From Cyanidioschyzon merolae (lineage: Eukaryota), in assembly GCA_000091205.1 (NCBI GenBank), contig AP006495.2: a stretch of 64,000 nucleotides of DNA. The stretch is one strand, 5' to 3'. Positions 450 to 59,183 of the stretch are shown here, one piece after another. The position numbers were made by a program, and so were the translations under genes. Every line of letters begins with the position of its first letter. Within the stretch, counting starts at the first letter, position 1. The notes beneath the pieces were generated by a model, which was given only the letters and a program-made list of their open reading frames with translations, searched no databases and had not been told where the DNA came from.

Positions 450-2318
450 CGCTTGTCAATCGTCTAACGAGCGGAACGCCTAGGAAGAGCTAAATGTGCA
501 GTGCACACAGGAATCCACCTTCAGAAATCGGGTGCTTTGCACCGGCTACAGTACTGTAAGCAATGTTCCTGTACATGCGATCATTAACGCCTGAGTCGAA
601 TCCCTATAAACCGCGTCAAAAACAAAGACTTGGCAAGATACGCTCGTCCAGAATTGATCCGCATCGCCGGTTGGGAAGCATTTGTTTCGGAATGCTAGGC
701 ATAGCCCAGTTTCTTTGAAGCACTGCACTTTAGGGCGGAGCGCTATCGAGAGAATAGATACATTTCGAGAGAAAGGTTCAAGAGTTTCTCGTTACCGGCT
801 TGGGAAGCTACAGGTAAGTGCGTGGTGAGTAAGAGCTGAATCATGCGTCAAAGATCCATCTGGTTGTTTGCTTTCATGAACAGATGCTCCAGTCAGCGCT
901 CTGTTTCTTCATAGAACCGTGAAACCCCTGAGCAAACGAGACCAGCACAAATAAGTGTTCGATGCAAGGAGGGCAGCTTGATGCATCTTGATCGTCCTGA
1001 TAGCGCCTTTTGACTAAACCATTTGTGCTGAAGCCATCCCGGCGCGCCAGATGAATTGTGCTCGAGTTCATTATCATTCTTCCTGGATCAGAGAGTTGTG
1101 GGTGGAAACCACCCCTGTAGGCTGCGGCTCAGCGGTGTAGTGGTAACTCGAGACCCTAGCGAGCTTACAGCTGTTGTTTATCAACCAAAGTTTCGCTAAG
1201 GGGGTGCATCACTGGGGCTATCAAGTAGCTAACTGGAGAAAGGCGAAGATCGGGTAAGTTATTTCCGCAAAAAAATTCTACACCCGTGTCGTAGTGAAAC
1301 GGAGCACCGAGTTGCTCGTAATGTTCGAGCAATTCGAGATTGTACGAACTTTTATAAACGCTCGAATTCGACATTCGAAATGCAGCAATTAGGGCTTACG
1401 GATTCAAACCTCTTTTAGGAATGTTCTCTCATCTTTAGAGAGCAACTACCACAATCCTTTAACGCTGGTATTCGTTACGTAGATGTCTTCGAGATGATTC
1501 GCGACGCCCTCTAACAATGGTACGTAAACTAACCGATACCATTGCTTAAATCGTAAGTACATGCCTCCACTCTTCACCTTTCCTTACATGTACGATGTTG
1601 TTATCTCGCATACTTCAGTTTTCCGATCTTTCTATTCCAAGCCAACTTGTTGGCTCAACGGTACGTCTATCTGGATTCAATGCGAAATCTATCAACGTTG
1701 TCGTTTGACAGCATTTTCACATGCTCAAGCCAAAAGTTTACTGAACGTACATATGAAGCAATATTTTCTATTCGAGAGATGAATCATCCTCTCTGTCCAG
1801 CCATTGACGAAATACCGCTCGAATGCAGCAGCATGATACCTCTTACGGGTATAACTCCAAGGGCTCCCATCTCTTCAGATTGCTTGGAAGCGTTTCGGAC
1901 CTTGACTTCACTCATTGCATAGATTCGTTTCCAGTGAAGAGTGCATCATCGCTTTGCAGTCCGGGAGCTTCGATGACCTGGTGTATCTCAAAAAATGTCC
2001 TCCATTCGGGTTTGCAATTCGGTACTCGTTTCACCATGCGCAACAATGTGTTACGCAAAATCTCCCATCGAATTTTTTTCAGATAACAAAACGATTACAT
2101 TGACCATGGATCCCAGAATTCGGAATGGATAATGGCTTTCGGGAAAGCGTCCATCATAAAGCACCCACAGTTAAGTTCCATTACTCATAATTCTTCTATG
2201 ATATACTGGTCGTTTCGAATGTTATATAGTGCACGAGTGCCTGTTTTGAGCACACGCCATAACGCTTATGCCACTGAAGCAGATGCTACACGTAGACAGA
2301 ACGGCTTTGGCATACCAG

Positions 2319-2587
2319 TGAGGGCGTCGGCTTGAGGCGTGGTTCATCGGACACGGAGTCGGAGTACTTAATCATCCTGGGAGCCTGCGATAGCGCGAAG
2401 CGATATACTAGGCGTCCACTGCGACCAGGGCGACGCCCAGGCGCAGAATCCTTCTCCTAGTCCCAGAATGAATTGCGGTGCGGACGAGTTGCACAGGTCT
2501 CGCCACAGCACCTGCCACTGGAGGAAACATGAAGCACTAGCCCGGCAGACTCGTCCGGCTAGCGGACCTTCCGCCTAGAAGGTAAAC
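2319..2587 (+). repeat. dispersed repeat family 2 / candidate structured ncRNA, copy A (about 270 nt)
   Basis: About 75-80% identical to 17460..17758. Both ends are conserved (gagggcgtcggcttgaggcgtggttca at 5', agcccggcagactcgtccgg...ccgcctagaaggtaaac at 3') and the middle varies, with indels. Confidence 0.5.
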
Positions 2588-3670
2588 TTTTGAAGATACG
2601 TAAACTTCCCGCTTTTGAATGATTACTATCAAGGTCGAAAGAAACTGTTATCGAGTTGCTAGCTAGTGGTTAGTTTCTGTTCTTTCATCCTCCAGCGAAT
2701 GGAACAGCATGCGGTTTCGTGCACAGCGGACGATGCTCACGTCGTGGGGATTGATCAGCAGAGGACCCATAGTCGTAGTTCAAGATACTGGGAGGGAAAA
2801 CGGAGAAGGACTTCAAGGGTAGCATTATATACTTGTCAAAGACGTGTACCATGCGAAGAAGAAAGTGTTTGCGCGAATAGTGCGGCGCTCTGATGGGGAA
2901 GTGCGGTGCGAGTTGGAGAACACCTAACCATAAAAAAGTCTCACCACCGGGAGGGGCACGGCGAGGCTGTATGCAAAGAGAACGAAGATAGAGCGTGAGA
3001 GTTAAGTAAGGACACCCGCTTGTGCTTGAAATGCGGGGAACGCAACGAGAAGCAGCGAAACCAGGACGTTGATGCGACCATGTTCAACCTTTGACTGCTG
3101 AAACGGAGCTGAGGGGACAGAATAGAACTCCATGTTTTAAAGCCGGAGAACGGGGGCAGTAGAATAGGAAGCGTTTGCTAAGAAAGCCAGCAAAGTATGA
3201 GGTTGGATTACTTCGGAAAGAGGCCCCGATACATGTACGCAGCCCGTGCTACGTTCGCGTACCCGTTCCATGTTATTCCCACGCAGGTATAGATAGCGGT
3301 GTCCAAGAGGAGTCCAGCATAGCTACACTATTTGAATATTCTGATGTTGTAGCGTGCATGGTGTACAATTTACAGGACTGTTTCATCAATGGATTTCAGT
3401 CAGTCGCATACAGCTTCAGATACGCAGTTTCTGGCCGCGGATGAACAGCCGCTCGGAAGCGCTTCACAAATGAAAGCGCAGAAGTCTCAAAGGAACAGGA
3501 TAATCTTTCAACAGCCGTAACTTCCACGCGAGGGGCCGTCTTTTCACATTGGATTAGTCCTTGAATGAGGAGGGGCTTCGGAAGCGCAACCTGCTTCCGC
3601 CTTGTGCAGTGACACATGCACACACGAAGACTACACCGATTGCATCGGCCGAAAGGGAGATCTTTCCCTA

Positions 3671-6328: not shown

Positions 6329-7129
6329 ACAAAGCGTGTACGTTTACGAAAACGGTCGTTGAAATACAGAACGCAGGCAGAAAGATTGATGTCATTCGGC
6401 CGCAACGCCAGAGTTTTCCGGATCTATCTCGACACCGTAAAACTTGCAGACCTCACCGTAGGCTCCCCGAGAGCTGCATACTCGTCAGAGACAGCTCCGA
6501 GGACATGTAGACATAAGCCTGGTGTATAAGTCCACCTGCCGTAGCGCTTATTTTAAGTGATTTGAGAGCTTCACTCTCGTTTGGCAAGGCTTCGTTGACA
6601 AGTTAGCATAAACCTTTTGCTGACCACGACGTTTCAGAGCGAAAGCCCGGGCGGCTACAGGGTTGCAGCCTCTTTAGTGAATGCTTCGCTGACTTTTTGT
6701 CATAAAGCTCTTGATTTGAGCTGCTTTTCTGAGGACGCGGTTGAAGTAGGCAGCGGTTAAGCAGCAGCAGCAGCCCAGATGGGCCTTTACATCTAACTTA
6801 TGCTTCGAGCACGCTTTTTGAGTGCGTTATTCTAGCCACCAGCGGCGTTCTTCCGCAAAGTTTCCGCAAAACGAAGAAAATTTAGAGCTGCTGTTACTCG
6901 ACCAAGTGTTACCTCTCTTTTAAGCTACGATATTTGCGGCTTTCAGTGCACAGTGCACACTACATCAGTCTCAGACTGAAATGAAACACTGAACTGAACG
7001 CTCTGATCCTGCGTATCGATTTTCAGAACTTTGTTTAGGTGTCCAAACTCCATTTTCGAATTGCGGCAGTAAGTGCTTTTGTATTCACATGTAGTTTCAC
7101 AGTTCTCTGTCCTATTTTCGACTTTACTC

Positions 7130-7270
7130 GGTCGAGTCCTTGCTGTCGAAATTTGTTAGGTCACTGGTATCAAGAAGAGTCGCGACGCCCTCGAACACCT
7201 GGTTCGTAACGCGATCAGTATAGGTATTCAATTCTCACATATAGGCCTCGACTGTTCTTCTTTCCTTCTA
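7130..7270 (-). repeat. dispersed repeat family 1, partial inverted copy
   Basis: atcaagaagagtcgcgacgccctcgaacacctggttcgtaacgc...gtataggtattc is the reverse complement of the family-1 core gtgctcgagggcgtcgcgaaccatcgtcttgat. Related inverted fragments occur at about 1440..1560 and 47030..47110. Confidence 0.45.
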
Positions 7271-9790
7271 GCATACGTAAAAGTCTTAATCGTAATTTTT
7301 TTTCGATCCTTCTTCTCCATGTCGACTCGTGAGCTCGGCAACTCTCGCTGCTTGATTTAAAAGTAAAAGTACTTTAGACCGTCGGATTAAGATTGTTCAC
7401 AAACTCGTGCCTTACGCTCACAGAACTCGGCTTGCCAGTTGATCATTTCCATTCGAAAGGAAATCTTCCGCATTCTGTGGCCATCAGTCATACGCTATTC
7501 CACAGTACCACAATAACTCGTAAACGATGTGCTCCCAGAGGCTCCCTTTTCCCCTGTTTGCAAGGAAACGGGCAATGTCTTCGGGCTTTCACCATCGTAG
7601 AGATCGCTTCCAGTAGAGTGCGTCTCCGCATTTTCACGACGCGTGCGTACATCGACGGAAATTGCTCGACTTGTTCTGAAGCTTGGTTTTCCTTCCGGTG
7701 CATGTTGCATCATTGACTGCACCGCGTTCTACAGATTCTTTGTCGAATGGAACAGAACGCACAGGTGTGTGCAGCGGGCAGAGTAGGCGCCGAAGAGATC
7801 GCCCAGAACATGCCCCACGGCCGATAGGTCCGACATTACGGCCAAATATATTGGAGTGCATTGAGTGGAGCCTTCCGAGCCCGTCACAGTCATGTTCCGA
7901 GAGATGGTGCGATCTTTCAGACGCCATATGAGGGCGCCCGGAAGGGACTGCTTGATTGGTATATTCGAACAGCTAACCACAGTCAAGCATCACAGCAGCG
8001 AAAGGCGCACCGAGATCGTATGCGAAGGAGATGGAAACAGCACGCGAGGCGTCGAACGCGACTTCCGCATGCTCATGAAATGGGCAGAAAACACCATGAA
8101 GCGCTGGACTCTGGTATTCAACTCCGCCACTAGCATCCCTGAACTGCTACCGTGGAAGCTGAAGTGACTGGAGAAACCGTATCATTTGAAGCATGAGCAA
8201 AAATAGAGGAAAAGGAAGCACTCAAAGTTAATGTCTGCAAAGTGGGCGTCGATGACGGTGGGAAGACACCCAAACTTAAGACGCACGCCCATGTTAGGGG
8301 AACGCTGCCATTCAATCCGGAAACCGGTGTAAATGATATATTCGCCGTCAATTGAAGAAGACATATCATGAATGGCGCAAAACACTCTTTAGACAGTTTT
8401 CCGGATCTTGGCGCGCAATCCGCGTTTGTGACACAGAACAATAAATCGAAATTGCGAGATTAAATTGTTCAGATAATGGCAGTGAAATTCGGATGCCTAA
8501 TTTTAATTTTGAGATAGTTGCGCTCATTATCGAATACATTTTATGTTATTCACTGAATGAAGCGCATCTTCTTGACATCAAAGTGCAATTTATGCAGCGT
8601 TTTCAAGATGACCTTGCGGCGAAGTGTGCAACAAAGGGCACAGGGCTTTTAAATCATTCAGTAGAGATTTCCTTCTACGTTCGGTTTTAAAAGCGTCGTA
8701 GTCGGTTCAGTGTAGAAATCTTCAGCTGCGCTGCATATTATCGAACAAGTCCTTTCTAAGCTTCATTACATCTTCAGATAGCATCAGAGCGATCTTTCTT
8801 ACTTACAACATCTGCGCCTCGGAACTTTTCCCGGTTGGTGACGAAACAAACAAGTGAGTTTCCGAGTTTGCCTGATATTCACTTCGGCGGGAGACGGCTC
8901 TTCATTTACTTTTGGCTGTATAGGCAGATATCGCTGTCTTGGAAGTATCCTTTCCAAGATCGTGCACCGAACACTTCGACAGCTGAAGTTCGATTCAAGA
9001 ATATCTTTGAAAGGGGTGAAACATGTATTTCCCTAGCGCACTGATCGTATTTTGCCGGACTTCCATGCCCACGCTTATACGATCCCCTTGTCAAGAGAGC
9101 GTTGATCCTGTGAAGTGGTCCGAAGAGATAGCACTTGCCGTTTTACCCACAGGCGAATTTGCTAGGAAATTTCACATCTTCGGTCCACAGAAAATATCAA
9201 ACTCGCCTAAGGCTGCTTTCACCTTTCGGGACCACCTCGCTCTATCCGAGAGATATTGCACTCAGGAGATATTGGTCGCCATAAAACGTTGCTTCGAGTA
9301 CTGAAAGTCCCGTCATCCACGCTTTTCTAATCTTTGATTGAACGACATTTTTTTCTTTCTGTCTCTTATCGAAACGCAGAAAAACTGCTGTTTACAATGG
9401 TCACCTATGCAGGTTGGAGCTTTTTGGGAGCTTCTCTCTGTCTCAATACTGAGCCCTCCACGAAAGCTCTGCGTTTCAAACGGTCCTGGAGCTGTGCGGT
9501 GCCGTGCGCGAATCGTAGGCTCAAGCCGACGCCCTCTGTGGAACGGCAACGCGGTTCTGTCTCCGTTCAGCGACCGCACCGGCGCTACGGCGCAATTGCG
9601 GTCGCTCTCGGCAGGTTCGGCACACGATAGGACGTATCAAACGACCAGAATATCCGAGAAGAAGTATAGGAAATGTAAATTGGAGGTAGGGGTTTGATGG
9701 ATACTTCACCGCGCACTGAAAAAACACACAAAAAAAGTAAGCAAAGAAAAAGCGCACAGTCGGAGAATTCTTGCCTACCTAAACATTTTG

Positions 9791-10879: not shown

Positions 10880-12439
10880 AGGAACGTCTGCCGAAAACTA
10901 CGCTTACAGCGGCGAACGCTTCGGCGTCCGTGACGTGTACAAATCGGTTCTGACGCTTTATTTTCTTTCATCTCAATTGTATTCCACCGCAGCAGGGTAA
11001 TGCATGTTTTTTCGTGGTTTATGGCAGATGTGTTCAATGTACTTTCATTTGGAGAGAAAAAATCAAAGTGTAAGTTATGGTCACGGAAGTCGGTGATCCT
11101 GGCGGACCGCCATCACCAGCTGCCGAAATGAAAACGAAAAATCTTCTTCTTACTCGCTACACAGCGGAGAAGAGCAAGTGGGGAGGCAGAAGAAGAGGAG
11201 ATAGATAAGAAAACTGTTTGCCCCACGTGACGAAAACGAGACTGAAGTAGTGCAGAGGGTGCTATTGCTAGGAATTCGTTAGAAGGTGAGCTCCACCTTC
11301 GTCAATGGACGCAAGGAGTCCTTGAACCGAGTCTTCAACGCTTCCATAAATATGCGACAGCGCTCGGTGCTGAATACGAGACCCGCGTAGCTGGTGCGAG
11401 CCATCTTTGTGGAGGCAGCCGCTCACGGTCGAATTTTACGAGAAGAAGCTGGAACCGATAGTAGGGAGCCAGCAAAAAGGCCGGGAGGCGGCCGTGATTG
11501 GCTATTATTTTACCCTACGACGTTGTGACGCTCTTTCGCTCCGTGAGCACTTGCAGGAACTTCAGCCAAGAGCCGCGATTCACACAGCCCGTAGCCACCC
11601 ACAAACCCTCTCTCAGAATAGAAAAGGAATGGGTCCCCGAACTTGGGGCGTAAAGCTCAAGTTTGGGGATTTCCAATACTATTAACATCATCTTTTGCTG
11701 GCTTTTTCGGCGACTGCTCCTCTTTCCTACGCTCTCCATTGTAAGCAGTCGAACGATGTTGAGAGCAGCGTAGAGTGCATACATGGCCTTTAGCGGCTGT
11801 TGTTCACGCATTTTATGTATGAGCAAATTTTACGATCTACGCTTCGTGTGTCATTGTCATTTGTTTATGTAACAGGTCTGTGCGGCCTTCGCATTGGTGA
11901 CATTTGGCCGTGGTCATATTTTTCCGCATGACCATAACACCCAATCGAACGCTGAGGGCCAGCCAGTGGCACATGAACGCATGCTGCATCGCTCGGCAGA
12001 TGCCCTTGACGAGTGCAGAAGGCTCGGCTCGATGTTCTCCTCCGATTCAGCGTGCGCTGCTGTACCCTACGTCCACGGGCCTCTTGTAGGCGATCCCCTG
12101 GTACATGCTCTGTTGGCTGCGCGCGCAAACGCACGCTGTTCCACTCGTTGAGGAGTTTGTCGAACGCGAGTTTTCTAGAATGAAACATTTTCGTGAAACA
12201 AAATCCAGGCTCGAGATCAAGTCGGGAAATTTCGATTCGTCGCCTTCCGCTTCGTGCACAGAAATGACGCCCTCTCTACGAGAGGCGATTGTTGCGGCAA
12301 CTAAAGTCCGAGTCCAAGGCACTTTTCGTTGCAAAAAAAGACGGAGAGCCGATGGGAACTAATTCCTTAGGGATATTATGACGCCGGCGAACGCCAGGTC
12401 GCCGATGACTGCGAAATGAGGAGAATATGTCTTTTGGAC

Positions 12440-12890
12440 GAAATCGACTATTTGGCGTGTTACATAGAGTGAACGTTGGGTATGGGCTTGTTAACAAGTT
12501 TTCAATCGTCGACGTCGTGTTTCTCTTGTCGGAAAGCCAGTAGCGTAAATGCTGCACCTACGAGTCGACATAAAGAAGAATGATCAAAGAACTGAAGCAT
12601 GCATAACGTGAATACGCTGTATATAAGGAATGCAGAAGACTGGAGGCTCGCACGTAAGCATTGAATAACGAAACTGGTTATTTTACGAATACCTCCTTGG
12701 GGGCGTCGGGAATTAGCATGGTGTCAGTGAAGTGACGGGTTCCACGGCAAAATTTTGGAACGGCCGCTCGGAAACGACAACCGAGAATCCTAGGCCTACC
12801 TAAGATTCTGTATACCCTTATTGCTGTGCTCTTAATGTCGAGACTGTACATCATAAAAATTCGATAAAGGAATAAGAAAAACGAACAGAC
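12440..12890 (+). repeat. dispersed repeat family 1, copy about 450 bp, just upstream of the LysRS start
   Basis: Shares with the other copies the blocks gactatttggcgtg, gcagaagactggaggct, cgctcggaaacgacaaccgagaatcc, cccttattgc and tgtcgagactgtacat..taaaaa. Confidence 0.6.
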
Positions 12891-13008
12891 CGTCCAGTCC
12901 AGTGTTCTATTTTAATTTGACACGCATGCGGCCGTCCCAAGCGCAGCGTAACCACGTTGCTAGACCTCGGGCAGTATTTTTGCACATAGTCATAACAAGA
13001 GGAACACT

Positions 13009-14841
13009 ATGGAACTGAGCTCAGGGAACACGATCGAAACGGTGACGAGTGATCAGGATCTCAGGAATGAGACAGTGGGCTCGGATGATGGATCTGTCTT
13101 GAGCAAAAACGAGCTAAAGCGGCGTATGAAGGCGCAGCGCCTTGCTGCAGAGCGCGAACTGCGGCAGTCGAGCCGAGTTCAGCAACATCAGGCGGCTGCA
13201 CGCGATGCTTCCTCAGGAAACCAGGAAGCGGACGAAGAACTGATGACGTCCCAGCAGTATTTTAGCCACCGATGTCGAGTTGTCGAGCACTTTCGCTCCA
13301 GCGGAGAGGATCCCTACCCCCATAAGTTCTACGTGACGTGCAGCGTACCGCAGTTCATCGCCAAGTACTCATACTTGGGTGTAGGTGAGCGCCTCGATGG
13401 GGAAGAGGCTTTGGCAGGTCGCATTCGCTCGCGGCGCTTGTCTGGTTCGCGATTATTTTTTTACGATATTTTCGCTGATGGAACTAAAGTGCAAGTCATG
13501 GCCGACGCACGGTTGGATACTGCAGGCAATTTTGCCACTGTGCACAGTGCACTTCGCCGCGGGGACATCATAGGTGTCCGCGGCTATCCAGGACGAACGA
13601 AAACAGGTGAACTTAGTATCTTTCCCGTCGAGACGAGGCTGCTGTCACCGTGTCTACACATGCTGCCGAAACCGCACCAGATGCTAAGCGATCCAGAAAC
13701 ACGCTATCGCCAACGTTATTTGGACCTCATCGTGAACCGCGAGGTTCGCCCGATATTTGAACTCAGAGCAAATGTCATTCGCTTCATCCGCAAATTCCTG
13801 GACGAACGTGGTTTTCTCGAAGTCGAGACGCCGATCATGAATGCTGTTGCAGGTGGCGCGAACGCGAGGCCGTTTGTGACCTTTCATAACGAGCTTGGGG
13901 TCAATATGTATCTTCGCGTTGCACCAGAGCTCTACCTGAAAGAGCTCGTGATCGGCGGCCTGGATCGAGTTTATGAGTTGGGCCGAAACTTTCGAAATGA
14001 GGGTATCGATATGACGCACAATCCGGAGTTTACAGCCTGTGAATTTTACGCTGCATATCTGGACTATAAGGATTTGATGGATCTGACAGAAGCGATGTTG
14101 AGCTTGTTAGTGAAGGAGCTGACTGGGCATCTGAAAATCAAGTATCATCCCGAAGGGAGGCATGCTCTGGAGAACGAGGTCGAGATCGATTTTACCCCAC
14201 CGTTCAAACGGATCTCCGTCATGGATGCTCTGCGCGAAGCGCTTCCGAGCGAGCTGCGACCGCTATTTCCCGAATCTGAGCAACTCGGTACAGACGAGTC
14301 GCGCTTCCGTTTGGAGACTATTTGCGAGCGAGTGGGTGTAGTTTGCCCGCCTCCGGTCACAGAAGCACGCCTGCTAGATAAGCTTTTCGGGGCGCTCGTG
14401 GAGCCGAAGTGCGTTTCGCCCACGTTCGTTTGCGACCATCCGGAAATCATGAGCCCACTCGCAAAATGGCACCGGAATCGACCCGGCCTCACGGAACGGT
14501 TTGAACTTTTCGTGAATGGGCGCGAACTCTGCAATGCATACACAGAACTTAACGATCCCTTTGTGCAGAGGGAACGATTCCTGAGCTCACAACGGGACGC
14601 GGACAAAGGCGACGCGGAAGCAATGGCGAAAGATGAAGATTTCTGTACGGCGCTGGAATATGCACTTCCGCCAACTGCTGGCTGGGGCATTGGTATCGAC
14701 AGACTCGTGATGCTGCTCGCCGATCAGAACAACATCAAGGAGGTCGTGCTTTTCCCGGCACTGCGACCGCGCCCTAACTCTGACGGCGACGAGGCAGCAG
14801 AACTGCGAGATCGCGTTCAAGACCTGAAAGTTAAAGAATAA
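13009..14841 (+). CDS. KARS: lysyl-tRNA synthetase, class II, eukaryotic type with Lys-rich N-terminal tRNA-binding extension
   Basis: 610-aa ORF containing the OB anticodon-binding region and class II motifs ([31 protein letters not shown]). The N-terminal [16 protein letters not shown] helix is typical of eukaryotic LysRS. Confidence 0.95.
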
Positions 14842-14928
14842 AGATCAACTTTTGGAATGCAGGTCAGTGAAGTAATTACTCCCAAATAAGAATAAAAAGG
14901 GACAGGTGCCATCTCACGGGCGCATAAT

Positions 14929-15376
14929 TTAAAGTTTGGGTCTTTTCCTTATCCCATCGGACTCAGAATTTGCGGACTCTTTCTGCAATTGCTTCCTTTT
15001 CCACTCACACATCTCAGGCTCTAGATACCAAGGTCGTTCCTGTCCGTCCAGCTCATTCGCCGACAATATAAAGATGTTAATGGAAGCTTTAAAGTCGTGA
15101 TTTCGTTGCTCCCAAATGTTTTCAACGTATTTCATGCATCGTTGGAAATAACGTTCTACGGTTCGCTTGGCAGTTTTCATCTTATTTGTATATGGCCTCG
15201 GTGCGCGCTTCGCAACAGTGACTCTTTACTCTGATCGGGTATTCCCATACATCCGTGAAATCTCCCCTGTCTCCGAAGGCTAACCAGTAGCGCGAGAAAG
15301 GTTGCTCCATCACTCGGTAGTTGCCTTTGACGGTCACGGAAGGCTTCAATCGATGACCTCTTCCATTTCTATACAA
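14929..15376 (-). pseudogene. possible cytochrome b-c1 complex subunit 7 (QCR7/UQCRB)-like small gene, split into two ORFs by a 1-nt frame offset
   Basis: Adjacent minus-strand ORFs 15182..15376 (RYWLAFGDRGDFTDVWEYPIRV) and 14929..15180 (TVERYFQRCMKYVEN...ERPWYLEPEMCEWKRKQ) loosely resemble QCR7 (RYGLRYDDL, FYLEPYL, KRER). The frame break could be a sequencing error, a short intron or decay. Confidence 0.25.
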
Positions 15377-15859
15377 AGTGCCGTACCGTGTGGTTACTGG
15401 CTCTCGCCCGGCAATCCCCTCGATCAGTATGCTATCCGCCTTACGCGAAAGCGCAAGCTGTTCGGTTCAAGAATTCACCAACTGCTTCTTTTCATGCCCT
15501 GGTGGCGTCCTTGATCGTGTTTAAACGCGAAGAATAAAATTAAAGTGTGCAAGTTAGCTCGTCCCCCGCCCTATGCTGTTTTCCGATCAGAACGCAAGAG
15601 GATTTATAAAATGCGACGTCATCCGTGATGTAACAAATGCCTTAGGGAAAATAGACATAGGAGAAAATCTCGAGAAATTTCGATCCGTAAATGATTCCTT
15701 CGTGGTAAGCGACATCGACTGTGAATCAAATCCGGATCTGAGGCCCTGTTCAATGTGAAACGATCAGACAAAAGCGAGTAGGGTGCATATCCGGGGAGAT
15801 ATCCTGTTGTTGTGGAATGTAGTTTCGGCGATGTTCACAAAGAGCAGCGGATTCGTCGT

Positions 15860-16300
15860 TCGGACGTATCTGACTATTTGGCGTGAGAATTTCGCTCATG
15901 TTTCAGCATGGTCTTGTGAGGAAGCCATCGTAAACCGACTTCGGATGCTTTTACTCGTCCGCGTGGTTGCGCGAGGCCCTACGTCCATAAGTTACCTTGA
16001 AACAGAAAAATCGAGAGCTTGAGGAATGCGTAATTTGAACATGCTACACGTCTGGAAAGGAGAAGACTGGAGGCTTGTTCGTTTGAATATGGATCATGAT
16101 ATCGGTTCTTTGCCGAATTTTGCTCGAGTGTGTCGCCAATCATTTTGATTACATTGATGGCAAGCATTCCAACTGCGCAGCATTGAAGAAGTCGATCCCA
16201 AAACGAGGCCCGAGAACCCCAATTTGCTAATGCATCAGGAATAACTTATCGCAGCAAATTGTATGCCACGTCTGTACATGTAAAAAAGTTTGAAAACGAG
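15860..16300 (+). repeat. dispersed repeat family 1, copy downstream of LysRS
   Basis: Contains gactatttggcgtg...ccttgaaacagaaaaatcgagagcttga...ggagaagactggaggcttgttcgtttgaatatggatcatgatatcggtt...gtctgtacatgtaaaaaag, which aligns with the copies at 12440, 29600 and 58270. Confidence 0.6.
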
Positions 16301-17459
16301 ATCGAAAGGTAGGAATAGATCGTGCAGCTCAAAGTCTTTCAATTCAGTTTTATTCAACATTCACTGCAGTGTGTGGCAGGGATTTGACGCCTGGAAGCAA
16401 GGTACCCTATAGACTGTTGACGAATTGCCTTTAGGATATACATTCTTTACTGAACAGTGAAAGGAGGACTGCATTCCCCCTTAAGGTCAGTCAAACCACA
16501 ATATTCAGATGGGTGAGGAATGCGGAATCAAAGGAATGAATGCTGTCCGCGCCAAAAACTGGTATTCTCGAAGACTGCTTGCAGTCAATAGTAGAAAACG
16601 ACACTTTGGACTCGCTACGGTAAGCAAAAGCGACGTTGGTAGCGGCAAATGGCTTTTCAGTTTCTCAACAACGCGTTCGTGTGGCCCTGAAAAAAACTGG
16701 ATACTGTCGCAAAAAGAAAGTCTTAGTTTATGCACGGCCATTTCCCACCGAGGTCGCAGCTAATTCAGCGTTCCAGGAACGTCGCTATCCGTATGAAGCA
16801 CAGGGACAAGGACGTCGGTTTGCTCTTTCAGTCGATGAGAATTGCTTCGGACGAAACGGTCAGAACGCATTCGGGTATTCGCGGAACGGGAGCCCGTTGT
16901 ACGAAAGACCGAACTGGAAGAGAACGACGACATACCACCTGGCCTAGCTGCAGGGGATGTATTTAACGGCCTCAGTTCGCTCGTAGGGAAGGTTCATACA
17001 ACAACACCGTATTTGCCAAATTATTGAAGTCTTTTCCTTGACGTCTGGTGACGTCCTTCTGTTCGACGACGTAGTGTTTCACCATTCCACTTGCAACTGA
17101 GCTTCTGCGGATTCTCTCTGGCCAGAACTGCTTTTCATTCCGCGGTGTACTTCGTGGTCGAACCCAGTCCAGCAAGTGTTTTCTGTTGTGAAACATAATG
17201 ATAGCTCCACTGGGCGAATGTTTTTGTTTGGAAAACCGTTTACATTGACGACGGATCCGAGGTTGCGGGACGAATACCGCCTTCCGGGAAAGCGTCCACC
17301 ATGCCGCACACTACCTCCAAGTGCCAATACCTGTACTCGGTTGTACCGGTCGTTTCGTAGGTACTAACGCTCGCCAACCCTGTCGTTATAATCAGCATCA
17401 AACGTCTATATCGCTTGTACAGATGCTGCACCGATACAGAAAGCCCTTGCCATATCTAT

Positions 17460-17758
17460 GAGCGCGTCGGCTCGAGACGTGGTTCACTCGACATGAGGTC
17501 GGGACTCTTCAACTTTCTGGGAGCCTGCAAACTGCGCAGACAGACCTACAACCTGCGGCAGCACGAAGCGATATCCTAGGAGCCCATCGCAACCAGAGCG
17601 ACGCCCGGATGCAACCTACACGCTCCATTTCGCATAATAAACTGTGTTGCGGACGAGTTGCTCAGACCTCGCTGTAGCACCCGGCACCGAAGAGACATAC
17701 GCTTCGCAAGCCCGGCAGACTCGTCCAGTTCGCCGGACCTCCCGCCTAGGAGGTAAAC
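17460..17758 (+). repeat. dispersed repeat family 2 / candidate structured ncRNA, copy B (about 300 nt)
   Basis: Homolog of 2319..2587. The terminal hairpin CCTCCcgcctaGGAGG corresponds to CCTTCcgcctaGAAGG in copy A, a double compensatory change in a 5-bp stem. Confidence 0.5.
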
Positions 17759-18066
17759 ATTCTAGAATACGACAGTGTTTTCCCGTCAACGCTGGCCGTA
17801 AAGAAAGAAAGATATTTTTCTATTTTGTTTGTTAAAGATTACTTGTGTTCCCTGATCAAGAAATTGCGATTGCGCGATACACATGAGTAGGACCGCACCT
17901 GCGACATGCGCTGGGTGCGTCGCATCGCTGGCAGTGCAAATTTGTCGCAAATAGTCCCCGAGATCGTTGCTCGTGTGTCGGCACCGCAGATGCATGGAGA
18001 AGCAATGGCGCTCCAGGCGCGCTTCGATGCTGGCGGCGGAATCCGAACGATCTGGACCATTCAATC

Positions 18067-27097: not shown

Positions 27098-28604
27098 CTA
27101 TAGGAGAGCAGACGAGTGATTGGTACGCAAGGCACTCGCATGAATGCGGTTGGAGGTTGGTCTTCTTGTACATTATATTGGAGCGAACAACTCTGCCGAG
27201 GTGACACCAAGCATCAAATATGAAAGTATCACCGATGAGCTTCCGGGCAGATACTGCTGAATCGGAAGATTGCATAAAGTAGGGACTCGTATCCAAGTGC
27301 ACCCAGACAGGTGATCAGCGTTACTGCCCAAGCGCCAACACGACCCAGCAACGAAAGCAGGAGCCCTCATTACGGGCCACTGGGGAAACGAATGTCAGCG
27401 AGGCACCGGTCCGCGCTTTCCAGACGCCTTGCGTGAACAATATCGACGGCATCCATCGCTTCGCGACGAGCGCCGACGTAGGCCCGGTGCGGTTAAGCAT
27501 GCAGCGCGGATACCCAGGGGCCAGCCCAGCACGCGTGATCAGTTCGTAAACTATATCTTTGCACCTGGAAATGTAACGTGCATTTGACCTGAAGTCGATT
27601 TATCGACAGTCTCTGCACCACGCGTCCAATGATCTTCGAATAGTATGCAAACGGAGCTTCTGAGATAGTTCTCCAACGCCAGAGCCTGGAGAGTGGTGCA
27701 TTGGCATTAGAAGCAGGATCGCATTTGCTTGGCTTCGAGAGAGAAGTAGCCGTTTAGCTTCGCTGTTGTGCACAGGTTTGTGTGGTTAAACCTTTCCACG
27801 TAAGAGCGTAGTGTCCAGCAATAAGGTTACGTTTCCTCGCGCAGTCCTAGTGCGGTGGAAGCTGGGGTATCTGCGTGTAAATTAGACACCGAGTTAAGGA
27901 CCCAACAGTCGTATGCGGAGCGCTAGCTTCACCATGCCTCCGCGAAGGCTTTCCGAACCTTTCTTGCACAAAGAATTGTAAGGTTCAGCGTGAACTGTCG
28001 TAAAATGCAGCGATTGGCAGGAAAGCGAAAGCGGTTCACGCTTTGATGTTGTCTGCTGCTCGTCGCCAGAGCAGAGAGCGCTATAATTTGCATTAGCGCG
28101 CACTGACAAACTCTGCTCGAAATATCAAACAAGTATGTGCTCCGGTTTAAGGTACAGCGCTCTGTTGCGAGACGCAAGACGCAAATTATAGGCTGCTTGT
28201 TGCAGCATGGTCACTGAATAGCGCGCTTTGGTGGTGGCCTCCCTCGTGAAAGCCGGCTCTGTTGTACAGGCGCGGCGTCAGTGCATTGGCGTTAGACAGC
28301 GCTCGGGGAGTGTCAGAGTGATATCGAGTGCTCGCCAACGGTTCTCCTCGGATGCATCAAGGTAACTGCATGAGCCAGGCGAAGCGACTTGCACTTCTCG
28401 CTACAGGCTCATACCTAGATCGACTTCTGGGACGCGATGTGGTAGGCGTACGCGACGTACCACAGGTTCGAGAAGGAATCCCGCCAAGCGAGGCACATAT
28501 AGCCACGTCTATCGTGCCGCTGTCGCACCTCAGCCCCATACTTGCAACACTTACAGGTAAGTAAAGATGCAGCCTCCTTCAGCATACCGCGGCGAATTCC
28601 ACCA

Positions 28605-30106
28605 ACGTGCGACAATAATGGAACTGTTTCCGCCAAGCTTGCTCGACATACAAAGTCAATGTTCGGGTCGTTTCCGACTATCATGACCACTAGTCCTCGC
28701 ATGATCTTGCAGCGACTGCTTGATTCTTTCTCTCTTCTTTACGCTCATAAGCACGTCCGTCCCTCAATGCCCTCATGTTTCGTTACCAGCAGCTGAGGAT
28801 GTTCGTCGCAGCTTGCAAGCCCCGATTCCGCTGCTCGCAGCGGTTGTCAACGTATTCCATGCACACGCTGAGGTTGCCATGGACGCTCCGCTTGCCCCAA
28901 GGATCGTCTTGGCCCTCGGCCTCGGCGCACCTCTCGCAGCGGCGACACGTTACTATGGGTAGGTGTTCCCCAGCGTCCGCGATACCTCCTCCAGCTCCGA
29001 ACGCCGCACATTTGCGTACGGAGACTCGCCTCGTCGCGCGGCACACAACCATGACATGTACAGAAGGCTCTTCTCGATGCTATGCGACGTTTTCGCACCC
29101 GGTGCCGTACTCCGTGATCAGGGACTTTGTCTGAACTTTCTCCTCGACATGTGCGTTGGCCGCTGCACGCGCAATCGCACGCTGCCTTGTTCGAGAACTC
29201 ACCAGGTGATACGCGTCACGGCCTTGGTGACGTTCCAAATCGGTTTGCCCCGAGGAGAAGACGTTCGAATGTATCACAAGACTCCTCCACCGTTCTCCGC
29301 TGCTTCCGGCAAAGAGGCGGTTTTGTGCAACCGATGGTGTCCATGGAAGAAAACCAGTGCGGGAAGGAAGGGCCAGGCTGGCGATCGCGTCGAGCGATAC
29401 CGACTCCGCTGCGCTGCGGTTGTTCAAAGCGCTGCCGGAGTCTCGGCTCTGACAGACCACTGCCACGACTCAGGTTCGAGTCCAAGACCGTTTTCCGTGC
29501 AAGCAGAAGAGATGGGAGCCTTGGCGGGCCCCCGCCCAGGGTGGCTGCACGCGGCTGCTATTGAATGCCGTTTCGTCGATGGCGCCAAAGCGAGGACGCT
29601 TTATCTGTTGGACGGGATCGACCTTGTAAGGTGACGAGTGCAGGGAGCTCTCGGCGCGAGCCCGTGGAGAGGCTGACAACAAGCGGCGTCGCATTTCTCC
29701 TTGTCAACCCAGCTGTGCAGAACGCTGCGCCCTCCAGTCGTCCCGAAACACAAAGATGAGATATGTGAAGCACGCGTGATTTGAGCTTTCCATACGTAAG
29801 GACGGAGAAGAGTGGAAGCTGGTTCGTATGAGCTGGCTCGTGATGTCGGTTCCTATACGATGCCGTGCTCGAGGGCGTCGCGAACCATCGTCTTGATTCT
29901 CGTGATGCAACGAGCACTAGCGACAAAAGGTTGGCGGAGCCGCTCCGAAGCGACAACCGAGCATCCAAAACCTGGTCATGAATCCATACGCGCCCATTGC
30001 TACATTTAGGATGTCGAGTCTGTACATGTAGAGAAAGTCCAGGGAGAATCGAAATGTAAACAGAGCAGGTAGGTCAGTGTTCTTTTTTGTTATGATACGG
30101 ATATTG
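28605..30106. repeat. segmental direct duplication, copy 1 (about 1.5 kb, >99% identical to 32412..33913)
   Basis: The ORF track lists identical ORFs at a constant offset of 3807 bp (e.g. 28963..29634 = 32770..33441). Both junctions can be read directly in the sequence, and only a few substitutions separate the copies. Confidence 0.9.
29600..30070 (+). repeat. dispersed repeat family 1 copy forming the 3' end of segmental-duplication copy 1 (an identical copy at 33407..33877 lies in copy 2)
   Basis: Contains gaaacacaaagatgag...ggagaagagtggaagctggttcgtatgag...cgtgctcgagggcgtcgcgaacc...cgctccgaagcgacaaccgagcatcc...gatgtcgagtctgtacatgtagagaaag. Confidence 0.6.
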
Positions 30107-32291: not shown

Positions 32292-32411
32292 TCACGAGTC
32301 CGCACCGTGGAGACCGTATTAAACGTGCATCTTACGACGCCCATCGTGAATGAGACGCACGCCCTGAATTTGAAATGGGATATTCTGGACATGGTATGTG
32401 TTGGATATCCC

Positions 32412-33913
32412 ATGTGCGACTATAATGGAACTGTTTCCGCCAAGCTTGCTCGACATACAAAGTCAATGTTCGGGTCGTTTCCGACTATCATGACCACTAG
32501 TCCTCGCATGATCTTGCAGCGACTGCTTGATTCTTTCTCTCTTCTTTACGCTCATAAGCACGTCCGTCCCTCAATGCCCTCATGTTTCGTTACCAGCAGC
32601 TGAGGATGTTCGTCGCAGCTTGCAAGCCCCGATTCCGCTGCTCGCAGCGGTTGTCAACGTATTCCATGCACACGCTGAGGTTGCCATGGACGCTCCGCTT
32701 GCCCCAAGGATCGTCTTGGCCCTCGGCCTCGGCGCACCTCTCGCAGCGGCGACACGTTACTATGGGTAGGTGTTCCCCAGCGTCCGCGATACCTCCTCCA
32801 GCTCCGAACGCCGCACATTTGCGTACGGAGACTCGCCTCGTCGCGCGGCACACAACCATGACATGTACAGAAGGCTCTTCTCGATGCTATGCGACGTTTT
32901 CGCACCCGGTGCCGTACTCCGTGATCAGGGACTTTGTCTGAACTTTCTCCTCGACATGTGCGTTGGCCGCTGCACGCGCAATCGCACGCTGCCTTGTTCG
33001 AGAACTCACCAGGTGATACGCGTCACGGCCTTGGTGACGTTCCAAATCGGTTTGCCCCGAGGAGAAGACGTTCGAATGTATCACAAGACTCCTCCACCGT
33101 TCTCCGCTGCTTCCGGCAAAGAGGCGGTTTTGTGCAACCGATGGTGTCCATGGAAGAAAACCAGTGCGGGAAGGAAGGGCCAGGCTGGCGATCGCGTCGA
33201 GCGATACCGACTCCGCTGCGCTGCGGTTGTTCAAAGCGCTGCCGGAGTCTCGGCTCTGACAGACCACTGCCACGACTCAGGTTCGAGTCCAAGACCGTTT
33301 TCCGTGCAAGCAGAAGAGATGGGAGCCTTGGCGGGCCCCCGCCCAGGGTGGCTGCACGCGGCTGCTATTGAATGCCGTTTCGTCGATGGCGCCAAAGCGA
33401 GGACGCTTTATCTGTTGGACGGGATCGACCTTGTAAGGTGACGAGTGCAGGGAGCTCTCGGCGCGAGCCCGTGGAGAGGCTGACAACAAGCGGCGTCGCA
33501 TTTCTCCTTGTCAACCCAGCTGTGCAGAACGCTGCGCCCTCCAGTCGTCCCGAAACACAAAGATGAGATATGTGAAGCACGCGTGATTTGAGCTTTCCAC
33601 ACGTAAGGACGGGGAAGAGCGGAGGCTGGTTCGTATGAGCTGGCTCGTGATGTCGGTTCCTATACGATGCCGTGCTCGAGGGCGTCGCGAACCATCGTCT
33701 TGATTCTCGTGATGCAACGAGCGCTAGCGACAAAAGGTTTGCGGAGCCGCTCCGAAGCGACAACCGAGCATCCAAAACCTGGTCATGAATCCATACGCGC
33801 CCATTGCTACATTTAGGATGTCGAGTCTGTACATGTAGAGAAAGTCCAGGGAGAATCGAAATGTAAACAGAGCAGGTAGGTCAGTGTTCTTTTTTGTTAT
33901 GATACGGATATTG
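32412..33913. repeat. segmental direct duplication, copy 2 (immediately upstream of the TerC start)
   Basis: Same sequence as 28605..30106 shifted by 3807 bp. It diverges after gatacggatattg at 33913. Confidence 0.9.
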
Positions 33914-33989
33914 ACACATAAAAACTTTCTACGACTATGGAGGGGAAATGAATGCACTTGTGCAGACGCCTCCAAACCTTTTTAAGTGG

Positions 33990-41390: not shown

Positions 41391-41681
41391 CTCGACCCTC
41401 TGAGGTGTGCCCCCCAACTCGTAAGGCGTATAGGACGTTCAGATCCCATCTATCGGTATCGTAACAAAACGCTTTGCACACTCCTTGTACGTTCTTGTCG
41501 TTGGAGCTGGCTTAGTCCCTTTTTTGGTCATCCAGCGACCTGCTCCGTATGCTACTACGAGCCTCTGAATCTCGTCCTCTTTGAGTGCGCTCAACTAATT
41601 GAAAATTTTCGCAAACGCGCGCTTTTTCCCACTGTACAAGTTCATACGCAGACGTGCCCACTGGGGCTTTGTATATTCTTT

Positions 41682-46660: not shown

Positions 46661-48619
46661 CCTCGGGGCAGCACGTCACAAGGCAGAGCACAGCGCACGA
46701 GGTAGAGGTCTTGCGTTCGATGAACGAACATCGTTCTTCGCTGCCATGCCCACGCTGGGATGATGCAGACGCGATACCGCCAGGCGGCACAAGCCCCGGT
46801 TTCTCGCCAGGCACCTCAGGTCTCTATCTTTATCCGAGTAAGATAGAACCCTGAACCGCTTGCTCTGTTTATGTATTTCTACTTCTTTTGGAACTTTTTT
46901 AGATATACAGCATCGAAACTGCGAGTGACGCATAGAGGGCTCGCGAGTTCATTCGCAGTTTTAAGATGATCTTGCGTGTTTTCGTCTTGCTTCCATCGAT
47001 TCTCTGCCGCTGGAATGTTTAACGTCACCCTCATCAAGAACATTCGCGACGTTCTCGAACACGAGTTCGTGAAATAGACGATATCATGATCCAATGTACA
47101 TGTGAAAGCCTCGGCGCTTTTCGTTTTCTTACGTGAAGAGTGCTCGGGTCATGCATGCTCAAAGTTTTCCGAATTTCTCTTTTGAGGCAACTCCTGGACG
47201 CTGCAAGTTGCGACACTGGATTGCTGACGATAAATACATAGCATCCTCTCATGATAACTTTTGCATAAGCTCATGCCGAAGTTTCACTGAACATTTCACG
47301 TCAAATAACCGTTTCTGATTGGAAGAAAAATTCTCCTCGCTTTGAGACCATCAGCGACACGGCATATAACCGTAGTATGCCACCTCACATGGTATATGCC
47401 CCAAGGGGCTCCCGTCTCTTCTGTTTCCATGGAAGAAGGCCTTGGACTCGGATTTCAGTTATCCAAGGAATCGTTTCCGGAGGGACGCGTGTCCCCGGCT
47501 CGCAAGCATGGAGCGTAGACGGATCGAAATTTCTCGCATTGTTCTCCGGCCAGGATTTTCCTTCCAGCACTTTTCCATCATGAAGAACATCGCAATCGAC
47601 AAATGCGCTACCGAGTGGTACAACATGTGCTTGCGGGTGGAGCAGACATATTACGCACCGAGAGATTCTCCCATTAGAACCTCCTGATCGCCGGGTACGG
47701 TACCAGGCACGAAAGCGGAGGATGGCATCGAGAGGTGCTTTCTGGATATGTCTAGGGCACGAACCGAACGATGAAGTAGGAGTGCACGCGTCACAGCGTG
47801 GAGCTCGGAAGAAAATGAGGAACTGTTGTAGTCGTGTGGCAATACGTGATCAAAGCCAATTGTTACCGCTGCAAAAGGCGCACCGAGCATAGACAAAGAG
47901 CAGATTCAAAAATTGCGACCTCCGCCTGTGCATGCAATGCGTAGAAAACAGCCGGAAGCAGCGGAATCGGGATTTGAACGCTGGCTTCAACCTCTATCGA
48001 CTGCGGACAACAGATCAGGAGGGAAAGGAGCGACTAGCGTTTTTAAAACCGGATATAAGAAAAAAAGAACGTTGTGGAAGAAATAACCCGCAAAGACTGA
48101 TATTGGTAATAGAGGGAAGCGACCCAAACGTGAGTATATATGCCCGTGTCAAAAAACCTGCTCCACATCAGTAGGAAACGCCCGTCCCATGCTGCCCAGC
48201 ACTGTTGTCTTTGAATCGCTCATCACCATCGTCAAGCTTCCTGGTGTTGCATAACTGAATCGAATCCAGTTTTTCGATCTAGAATCACAGCATCGAACTA
48301 CATGAACCCCCGTACGCAGGCGCTACATTGTGGCATCCAGGGGAGCTACCAAGGCTTCCGCCCAGATCCCCACAATCCCGTGTACCACAAACCAGATTCC
48401 CCTTCAATGCGAAGGGTTCGTTTAAAAGATCCCATACACGCCGAGCCAACTGCGGACCTCGTTCGTAGACAGAACAGGTTTGCTTCACCGATGCGGGGAG
48501 CAGGTTAAAGGCCGACTCTTCCACCCGAAGATGCGTCAGCGCTTCAGAGGACTAGACAATCGTCGACCACCGTAACTTTTTGGTCGCTTCCCTGGAAGTA
48601 GCTCCTGGGTCAGACTCGT

Positions 48620-57200: not shown

Positions 57201-58269
57201 AGCGGCTCGTTGGCTACCAACTGCACCTTGGATCTGTCCTTGCGTGCTCTTTCATGCGCCACCGAACGACGTGTCAACTGTTTTTCGTGGAACCAGTGCG
57301 GTTTCTGCATGGCTCGCCCATGTGTACTGCTGTGAACTCCGGAAGGCGGCGCGAACGCTCCTGCGTCGAGGCCAGGCCAGAACATAGCCATGCCAAAATA
57401 AAAATGAACGGATCCTCTAACCAGGGCGCACTTACTGAAGTTTACGTCTCTGCTGAAAATCATCAGAACCAGCATTTGCGGGCTTCTGCCGCACCTGCTT
57501 TCTTTTCCGTTCGCATATCTGGGGCTCTCAATATACCGATGTCGATGACTGCTCTCCGTATAGCTCGCTTGTTGGTAGGCAAAGAATGTGTGACGGTGGC
57601 AACGTGCAAGTCGAGATTCGGTAGCCTTCGGCTGTTGTTGACACATTACATGCGAAGACGGAAATTTTCTACAGCTACGCTTCTCGTTCCATTTTCAGCT
57701 TCTTTACATTCGGCCTCGGTGCGGCGTTCGCTGCGGTGAAACCTGACCTTGGTCAGAGGTTCCCATAAATGTCAAGGACATTCCCTCCACCGAGCGCCTC
57801 CATATCGCCTGTGAACGCGTGCTCTATCGCTCGACATATACCTCTTATGGAGACAGAAGGCTCCCGTTGGTGCCCATCTTCGTTTCTGGCTTCGGCAGCG
57901 TTTCCTTGGATCACGAGCTCGTTCCTGAGACTCCCTGGGCGAGTGCCCTTTCCGTTGCACACGAAAGCAGACGTTGTTCCCATTCATCTGCGGATTTCTA
58001 GAACGCGATATTCCCCATGATGAAGCGAGTACCGGAAAGAGAATCCAGGGTGGAATTCGATATGAGCAATTTCGCTCCGTCTACGTGCCGTTCGTGCAAA
58101 GCGCTACGTACGCATCAATGGAAGGTATCGGTGGGATTATTGGCGTGCGGGTCCAGGACCCTTTTACATGCACACATTAGAGAGAAAAGCCTCTCAGAGC
58201 AGATTGCGTAAGCGGTATCATGTTGCTGCCGAATGCAACTCCGTCGATTGCCACATGGAGGCGATGATT

Positions 58270-58720
58270 TTTCTTTCAGAGAGAAATGAATAGTGGACGT
58301 GACAACTTCAGTGAACTTCAAGCATGAGCTTTTCAACAAGTCGTCAAGGGACGATCTCGAGTTTCTTGCTTCTTCATCAATCCAGCGGTGCGTATTGCTG
58401 CGCCCACGGTTTGCCTTGAAACAGAAACATCGAAAGCTTGAATTATGCATGGACTAGGCTCGCCATGCCTAAGGCTCAGAGCAGAATGGATGCTGATACA
58501 TATGCATTGGATCATGATATCGGTTATTTTAGGAAATCTTGTTCGAGAATAGCAAGAATCATCATGATTCCCGTTCCCTAACGAATTCCAGCGCTAAGTA
58601 TTCGAAGGCGCCACACGGCAAACACCATCGAGAATCCTGATTTTTTTGTGGAATCATAAACCCTTATTGATACATTCCAATGCTAGATGCTGTACAATTA
58701 AAAAATTGTGAAAAACTCGA
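58270..58720 (+). repeat. dispersed repeat family 1, copy between Mrs2 paralog 2 and MOCS3
   Basis: The stretch ccttgaaacagaaacatcgaaagcttga...ggatcatgatatcggttattttagg...atcgagaatcct...cccttattgatac...gctgtacaattaaaaaatt is colinear with the copy at 15860. Confidence 0.6.
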
Positions 58721-59183
58721 AAGACAGGAACAGAAAGAGCGGTTCAAGTTTCCATTTTTGTCTGTTGCAGTAGAGCACGGAACGCGCACCGCATGCTTCC
58801 ACGCGCAACACACGCCAGCTTCATGCAAAGAGCATTGCGCTTTATCAGCCGTTTATGATGTACGCGCTTCCAAATTACAAGGAAAATCCAGAGGTGTAGC
58901 TCAGAAGAGCGCTTGGCCGTCAGACTGGTATATTTCTGGATAGAAAGTTTCCGCAAGGCACCAAAATTTCCAGTATCCATGCGTCTATCCATGAGTATTC
59001 CTGGCACGCATACCAGCACCGTTGGTAACGGATCTCGTTTGATGGCACTCGAACAAGGCTTTCCACTGGGATCAGGTTTTCGATACCGATGACCCGCTTC
59101 TCCATGAGAGATCAGCAACACGGCGCGTCCACTAAACAGCTATCATCGGGGCGTTCGGCGCCGCTCTTCGAGACACTGGTCGG

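Follow-up and report, generated by a model that had tools for sequence, protein, structure and literature searches.

What kind of repeat lies on both sides of the LysRS gene in Cyanidioschyzon merolae? The question arises from positions 12,440 to 16,300 of a 64,000-nucleotide stretch of this genome (assembly GCA_000091205.1, contig AP006495.2; the whole stretch is called the window hereafter). An original prediction, made without database searches, had described here a dispersed element of about 450 bp, family 1, and had suggested a SINE (short interspersed nuclear element), a family resembling MITEs (miniature inverted-repeat transposable elements), or a conserved boundary or terminator element. 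We propose instead that family 1 consists of dead, non-autonomous copies of an IS630/Tc1-mariner DNA transposon carrying the tail of a Fanzor (TnpB-like) gene. Judging from sequence comparison, we give this reading a probability of roughly 0.88.

Eight copies of a 1.3-1.5 kb unit

The dispersed family itself is borne out. Sensitive blastn searches with queries of about 500 bp, taken from the five sites described as forward copies, return all eight places at which the family had been located. With E values from 1e-8 to 1e-45, these matches are neither insignificant nor compositional. An nhmmer profile of seven copies finds exactly eight full-length copies in the window and nothing else (E reported as 0), one of them, copy A, being recovered as two pieces (E 1e-190 and 7e-130).

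The unit is much longer than the predicted 450 bp, which cover one end only. In a comparison of the whole window against itself, similarity between copies extends over 1.2-1.4 kb. With the ends set by aligning the terminal repeats, copies measure 1325-1504 bp. The copies near 1440, 7130 and 47,030, previously taken for inverted fragments, are complete inverted copies. The expected identity of 70-80% was also too high: pairwise identity is 53-59% across the whole unit and 59-64% in the part first described, with the exception of one pair, E and F, at 99.4%. Each copy is 70-75% identical to the consensus.

We give the strand of each copy as that of its coding remains, which is opposite to the direction originally called forward. 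Five copies have a short form: A (1281..3289, plus strand; nhmmer pieces 1274-2071 and 2684-3264), B (6963..8329, plus, 1367 bp), C (11604..12928, minus, 1325 bp), G (46825..48186, plus, 1362 bp, the best preserved) and H (57385..58773, minus, 1389 bp, between two convergent genes). The long form, which retains about 155 bp that the short form lacks, is found in D (14879..16360, minus, 1482 bp), E (28600..30103, minus, 1504 bp) and its near-twin F (32407..33910, minus). The window thus holds seven independent old copies and one recent duplicate (the E/F pair), which together make up about 11.3 kb or 18% of its length.

As predicted, all copies are intergenic and lie between long open reading frames (ORFs). 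The genes of the window are eukaryotic, intron-less and found on both strands; they encode, among others, a HECT ligase, a fatty-acid desaturase, LysRS, TerC, E1 enzymes and DNA polymerase eta. The predicted bracketing of two genes also holds: LysRS (the cytoplasmic lysine-tRNA ligase, 610 amino acids, 13009-14841) has C on one side and D on the other, both oriented alike, and TerC (31143-32291) lies between copies 3807 bp apart.

Inverted repeats, transposase remains and a TnpB-like tail

Read on the strand of its coding remains, the consensus of family 1 runs from a terminal inverted repeat through an ATG, a transposase and the C-terminal quarter of a Fanzor-like protein to a second terminal inverted repeat. 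The repeats are 25-27 bp long and flanked by TA in the consensus. Once the 3′ end, TACACCCGCGTCCGAATAAAATGGAAC, is reverse-complemented, 22 of 27 positions agree with the 5′ end, TACATCCGTATCAGACTAAAATGGAAC, and none of 2000 shuffles equals this. A check for terminal inverted repeats, proposed with the original prediction, is therefore positive. Similarity between copies ends at these repeats, which enclose both the transposase and the Fanzor part in every copy; in copy C, for example, the 5′ repeat occupies 12904..12928 (minus).

IS630/Tc1-mariner transposases bind the inverted repeats of their element through a helix-turn-helix, excise the element and insert it at TA. A leading TA is accordingly the expected target duplication, which would have mutated in the remaining copies: TA is present at 5 of the 16 flanks (both sides of A and B, one side of D), for which we estimate about one by chance.

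The majority consensus of seven copies has an open frame of about 260 amino acids on this strand. It matches the IS630 family transposase profile of NCBIfam, NF033545, over positions 33-265 of 299 (E 6.6e-14), with 52 bits, below the cut-off of 100, and Pfam DDE_3 with an E value of 1.8e-5. When the segment specific to the long form is added, the DDE_3 score rises to 33.1 bits, above the gathering cut-off of 28.6. The motifs AIDET and MDN.AFH can be recognised in the consensus, and YS..N.I in the long form. The additional 155 bp or so encode the third catalytic region, which the short form is without: FYSSRLNTIKD and YIRTSSPRGKPIWN align with PPYSPWFNPIKN/IEN with scores of 56 (copy D; shuffles 25.7 ± 3.6) and 53, for shuffle means of 26-30 and a standard deviation of about 4.

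Relatives of this transposase were collected with a profile (A2) built from ORFs of other decayed copies in public assemblies (P0121-P0126) and from stop-free segments of the window. Among 1.84 billion proteins, 298 match at E ≤ 1e-3 and 107 at E ≤ 1e-10. Most are short ORFs from further decayed copies, and word-indexed protein searches with the two consensus proteins returned only such ORFs. The profile also reaches full-length proteins of 286-338 amino acids, namely P0167 (E 4e-18), P0177, P0202, P0217, P0245 and P0250. All of them contain DDE_3 (E 1e-23 to 3e-29) and Tc3-type helix-turn-helix domains; their N-termini match HTH_Tnp_Tc3_2, HTH_33 and HTH_23, and the consensus aligns with them from residue 1-2 onwards. 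The three that were checked (P0167, P0202 and P0250) exceed the NCBIfam IS630 cut-off. By blastp, P0167 and the consensus share 37% identity over 233 amino acids (E 6e-47), and intact relatives also find single copies of the window by tblastn: G at 4e-18, H at 1.6e-9, E/F at 4e-7, A at 1.6e-7 and D at 3e-5.

In copy C, the transposase remnant identified by tblastn with the consensus transposase spans 12099..12851 (minus), starts at an ATG (12851-12849) and is interrupted by stops and frameshifts. The segment 12440-12900, from which the family was first described, corresponds to the 5′ inverted repeat and the first 135 or so transposase codons. The 450 bp element thus takes in the 5′ inverted repeat, the short leader behind it and that third of the transposase gene which encodes DNA binding. 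The conserved blocks listed in the original prediction are real and map onto the transposase frame of the consensus, as read by eye from their reverse complements. The block tgtcgag.ctgtacatg becomes ATG TAC AGx CTC GAC, the protein start MYRLD, at the ATG of copy C. Likewise, cgctcggaa.cgacaaccgagaatcc yields RILGRVFGAA, ggatcatgatatcggtt yields KITDIMIQF, gagaagactggaggct yields TSLHSSPF, and ccttgaaacagaaa.atcga.agcttga yields LQFFDLSVSRQL.

All eight copies carry stops and frameshifts, and none has a long open frame. A tblastx comparison of the window with itself gives similarity in all frames at once, with no preferred coding frame; the frame became visible only in the consensus. Tested one by one against Pfam, the ORFs of the family give a single weak match (HTH_Tnp_Tc3_2, E 0.031). 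We also noted an ORF of 223 amino acids with a GTG start, antisense to the transposase remnant, in both E (28963-29634, plus) and F (32770-33441, plus). It has no Pfam match, and both instances are probably chance frames in these GC-richer copies (56% G+C).

The transposase remnant is followed, up to the 3′ repeat, by a further 140-160 codons or so. Fanzor proteins, which are nucleases guided by RNA, are believed to favour the persistence of the transposons that carry them. In the majority consensus this region includes a piece of 84 amino acids with CxxC...CxxC and RNLDLNAAINI, and the tail as a whole reads ...KKPVIAGYGTG...PSVPVKG...VVDVWEHLTIVKCHRCEGR...RLCMKC...RNLDLNAAINILR. It spans the region of the RuvC-II glutamate, the zinc ribbon and RuvC-III (RD.NAA.NI; motif RD.NAAINI), and these blocks follow one another in the order defined for TnpB and Fanzor proteins (PMC3627910). 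Pfam Cas12f1-like_TNB (PF07282, formerly OrfB_Zn_ribbon) matches the consensus with an E value of 6.8e-5 (23.4 bits, cut-off 26.3) and matches the open-frame relatives P0271 and P0272 at about 2e-3. In P0272 the motifs are intact (GYGTG...DIWEHLTT.KCYKC...RNRDFNAAINIL). With hhalign, the tail aligns with the Fanzor1 C-terminus of the Pythium ultimum element PUl-1 over the YG...PVKG...DE..T..C..C block (P 5.7e-5) and with that of the C. merolae element CMe-1 over NRDFNAAINI (P 5.4e-4). Both alignments fall on the expected motifs. We consider it likely, from these motifs and profiles, that the tail is the C-terminus of a TnpB/Fanzor protein. In copy C its remnant (...AKCHQCEGRT...) lies at 11793..12146 (minus). 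The complete protein is absent, as RuvC-I and everything upstream of it (the N-terminal WED/REC part) are gone from the unit, which leaves a tail without function.

Several results weigh against this interpretation of the two coding parts and of the unit. The Pfam matches of the tail are all under the gathering score, and the AlphaFold model of its relative P0272 is too poor to help (pLDDT, the predicted local distance difference test, is 62). Three-frame translations of single window copies gave no Pfam match, so that the domain calls come from the consensus, the profiles and the relatives. Profile searches of solved structures returned nothing relevant. The mariner transposase of PUl-1 is collinear with the consensus by tblastn and hhalign, but not significantly similar. 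The TA flanks are intact in a minority of copies. Finally, no full-length autonomous copy with a transposase and a complete Fanzor gene was found, and the contigs of P0167, P0202 and P0177 are only about 1 kb long and show no genes beside the transposase; we therefore infer what the ancestor was.

Spread and decay of the copies

Such an ancestor would have been bounded by inverted repeats of some 27 bp and would have encoded a transposase of about 310-320 amino acids, with two helix-turn-helix motifs and a DDE_3 catalytic core, and, downstream on the same strand, a Fanzor1/TnpB-like protein. The form that was amplified would be an internally deleted derivative in which the two inverted repeats, the greater part of the transposase gene and the last 140-160 or so Fanzor codons were left. 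The short form (A, B, C, G and H) would have lost a further 155 bp or so. Since ORFs from other copies (P0124, P0143, P0152 and P0271) span the same junction between transposase and Fanzor, the truncated form appears to be the one that multiplied. Being unable to make their own transposase, the copies would have moved in trans: transposase supplied from elsewhere may have bound their inverted repeats and put them at TA sites in intergenic DNA.

A comparable architecture is known from PUl-1 and PUl-2 of P. ultimum, in which an inverted repeat, an IS630/mariner-type transposase, a Fanzor1 gene on the same strand and a second inverted repeat follow each other as in family 1 (PMC3627910). Inverted repeats of 24-33 bp are shared as well, and probably also TA duplications. 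PUl-1 differs in its length of 3.6 kb and its two intact genes (about 8 copies), whereas family 1 would be a deletion derivative of 1.3-1.5 kb which has only the Fanzor tail and of which all copies are dead; the transposases have diverged too far to give a significant match when compared directly. Family 1 likewise shares helix-turn-helix motifs, a DDE_3 core and probably a TA target with IS630/Tc1-mariner elements in general (ITm; Pfam DDE_3, NF033545), from which it differs in that no window copy has an open frame.

We also asked how well the unit would be explained as a composite, in which an older Fanzor element received an IS630-like element in or next to its 3′ end and both were then spread by another route. 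No intact two-gene parent was recovered, the Fanzor part is only a tail, and CMe-1A, another Fanzor element of C. merolae, has no inverted repeats (PMC3627910), all of which would suit such an origin. Nevertheless, matching inverted repeats surround both parts in all copies. The same junction is found in 8 of 8 window copies, in a further full copy on another C. merolae-like contig (L010) and in the ORFs of other copies. The two parts are equally diverged, and PUl-1 offers a documented precedent for a mariner element whose transposase gene precedes Fanzor1 on the same strand (PMC3627910). A composite origin is therefore unlikely, and a single transposon with both parts explains the unit better.

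The copies of this transposon show no sign of having been protected. Identity between copies is 0.563, 0.560 and 0.559 at the three codon positions, so that no codon periodicity is seen. Conservation is flat along the element (0.45-0.64 per 30 nucleotides), with no protected block. The pairwise matrix is star-like, and Kimura two-parameter distances to the consensus are 0.30-0.39. This flat, codon-blind and star-like divergence agrees with a single, old burst in the Cyanidioschyzon lineage, set off from a master that was itself defective, and with neutral decay thereafter.

The distribution of the family is consistent with this timing. The family 1 profile has no match in 22 kb of syntenic DNA of Cyanidiococcus yangmingshanensis or in a deeper cyanidiophyte. 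In Cyanidiococcus, the corresponding gene pairs are much more tightly spaced: LysRS is 472 bp from the next gene there, compared to 3.2 kb in C. merolae. These observations agree with the repeat content reported for the two genomes, 12.7% in C. merolae and 0.59% in Cyanidiococcus (PMC9812998).

The possibility that the copies are functional intergenic elements under selection, such as boundary, terminator or promoter modules, draws on their position. Copy C ends 81 bp upstream of the LysRS ATG (12928-13009), copy D begins 38 bp past its stop codon (14841-14879), and copy F lies 116 bp upstream of the TerC ATG. The LysRS spacers are so short that its promoter and terminator signals are either very compact or inside the fossils. 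More generally, copies this near to genes imply that some host regulatory signals lie in or beside them, and parts of the copies are probably within untranslated regions. In addition, C. merolae repeats have been reported as transcribed (PMC1955436). A role under selection is nonetheless very unlikely. The copies face 5′ ends, 3′ ends or both ends of their neighbours, with no rule of orientation or position, and the even, neutral decay described above leaves no block that selection would have kept. The same spacers lack family 1 in Cyanidiococcus, and the last 223 nucleotides of the consensus fold as RNA no better than shuffles (z = +0.68). The suggestion of a boundary or terminator element thus falls away. 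The copies of today are inert spacer DNA, ordinary junk rather than regulatory sequence.

One pair departs from the pattern of age. E and F, compared over 28602-30106 and 32409-33913, are 99.4% identical with their inverted repeats included, and their differences are patchy: a stretch of 1178 bp has none, six fall in the 140 bp of 29793-29933, and three more lie within the outermost 12 bp of one repeat. From the alignment, such patchiness suggests that a younger local copy arose and that gene conversion, acting over 3.8 kb, then evened out the two. There is an outside chance that the pair instead records a very recent move of a dead copy over 3.8 kb. C. merolae 10D would then have, or have had until recently, a working IS630-type transposase, and it might even be that the Fanzor tail and right end continue to work as a module for guide RNA, served in trans.

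The remaining alternative among mobile elements, a SINE or a classical MITE, is scarcely credible. The copies are indeed dispersed, intergenic, non-coding today and moderate in number, and inverted repeats with TA flanks are MITE features. To this extent the SINE or MITE-like label was apt: family 1 is mobile, non-autonomous and bounded by terminal inverted repeats. The label fails for a SINE, which is ruled out by the inverted repeats, the remains of a DDE transposase and the lack of any tRNA-like or RNA-family match in the window (ARAGORN and Rfam), the last of which bears on a proposed check for tRNA-like A and B boxes; there is no poly(A) or simple-repeat tail either. It fails for a MITE in the strict sense as well, given 1.3-1.5 kb made up nearly throughout of recognisable remains of transposase and Fanzor coding sequence, compared to MITEs of less than about 800 bp without coding remains. 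P-MITE moreover reports no MITEs in C. merolae (PMC3964958).

Known C. merolae repeats and other debris in the window

Could family 1 be part of a repeat already described from C. merolae? Nozaki et al. (PMC1955436) counted 26 elements without long terminal repeats (non-LTR) and 8 of "class II", along with a 3.2 kb repeat present 253 times, whose truncated ORF weakly resembles WSV486 of WSSV (white spot syndrome virus). Bao and Jurka (PMC3627910) described CMe-1A, an unclassified Fanzor1 element of 3169 bp with about 150 copies and no inverted repeats, as well as TE-N2_CMe, 635 bp long and equal to the 5′ end of CMe-1A. The 253-copy repeat and CMe-1A are probably the same, because WSSV is listed as carrying one Fanzor1 (PMC3627910).

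CMe-1A and TE-N2_CMe share with family 1 the genome, a comparable age as judged by divergence from their own consensus, a Fanzor-type C-terminus (a probable one in family 1) and the same spacers. A TE-N2_CMe copy of 604 bp (2082-2685, plus, 80% identity) even sits within copy A. The two repeats differ from family 1 in having no DNA similarity to it, no inverted repeats and no transposase. Used as a blastn query, the 3169 bp of CMe-1A pick out seven pieces of this element elsewhere in the window but match the family 1 consensus only at chance level. The proteins share just a 12-residue match over the NAAINI motif, and the TE-N2_CMe copy in A was inserted cleanly, as a nested element, between profile positions 787 and 788. 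That family 1 belongs to either of these described repeats can accordingly be all but dismissed.

The eight class II elements stand differently. Their transposases were found closest to those of bacterial transposons, an affinity that BLASTX would also suggest for an IS630-like transposase. These elements may be the best-preserved members of family 1 or of a sister family, although eight in the whole genome is far below the eight copies of family 1 in a single 64 kb window. The 20 families of Rudenko and Korotkov (2024), for which a coverage of 72% of the genome is given, could not be matched with family 1, and the supplement of Cho (2023) lists no repeat classes.

C. merolae is cited as nearly transposon-free, with 0.7% of its genome in transposons plus one odd repeat at 5% (PMC1955436), and repeat expansion has doubled its intergenic length relative to Cyanidiococcus (PMC9812998). 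Family 1 gives a concrete identity to part of that expansion. It also suggests that a second Fanzor lineage was formerly present in C. merolae, carried by an IS630/mariner element whose inverted repeats are clear, in addition to CMe-1A, the sole Fanzor element so far described in this species, which could not be classified. The kinds of element involved are documented: dead Tc1-mariner/IS630 copies, Mariner elements with Fanzor1, and the C. merolae repeat expansion. In the literature that we searched, the identification of family 1, its inverted repeats and the second Fanzor lineage appear to be new; the family may already be in Repbase, unclassified. Family 1 is hence unsurprising in kind and of modest interest as a set of transposon fossils. 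For engineering of C. merolae, it means that "neutral sites" or promoter spacers may be such fossils, as for example next to the LysRS ATG.

Other transposon debris is found throughout the window. A CMe-1A copy at 40994-43187 (minus) is 85% identical to the published consensus, lacks consensus positions 421-1398, and has its Fanzor1 frame broken by stops and shifts (ORFs 42284-42988 and 41682-42152). In addition to the TE-N2_CMe copy nested in A, there is one at 17233-17868 (plus), and TE-N2_CMe/CMe-1A fragments lie at 9520-9711 (minus), 10959-11141 (plus), 11255-11490 (plus) and 33960-34202 (minus). Four families returned by a repeat finder (D3, D5, D7 and D12) correspond to these elements.

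A second, distinct family of IS630-like transposase fossils is present at 16335-17196 (plus) and 34192-34739 (minus), its copies being 69% identical; intact transposases match 16438-17196 with 24% identity over 261 amino acids (E 3e-12). The 4.8 kb gap 21437-26219 contains two remnants on the plus strand, first that of a strongly decayed transposase (22115-22573) and then one resembling Fanzor1 (23275-24867). The latter is 26% identical to the CMe-1 protein and has the motif SLDPGLTN. By its order of parts, 22115-24867 looks like an older, full-length mariner-plus-Fanzor fossil. The equivalent spacer in Cyanidiococcus is 1.2 kb long.

Altogether, recognisable transposon debris of four kinds amounts to about 19.8 kb, or 31% of the window. 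The window may be enriched in such debris, or the published genome-wide figures (0.7% + 5% in 2007; 12.7% in 2023) may be too low. Finally, a tandem array with a unit of 80 bp occupies 53723-54610 (11.1 copies, 98% matching). It is intergenic and lies between the ORFs 51511-53235 (minus) and 55896-57200 (plus).

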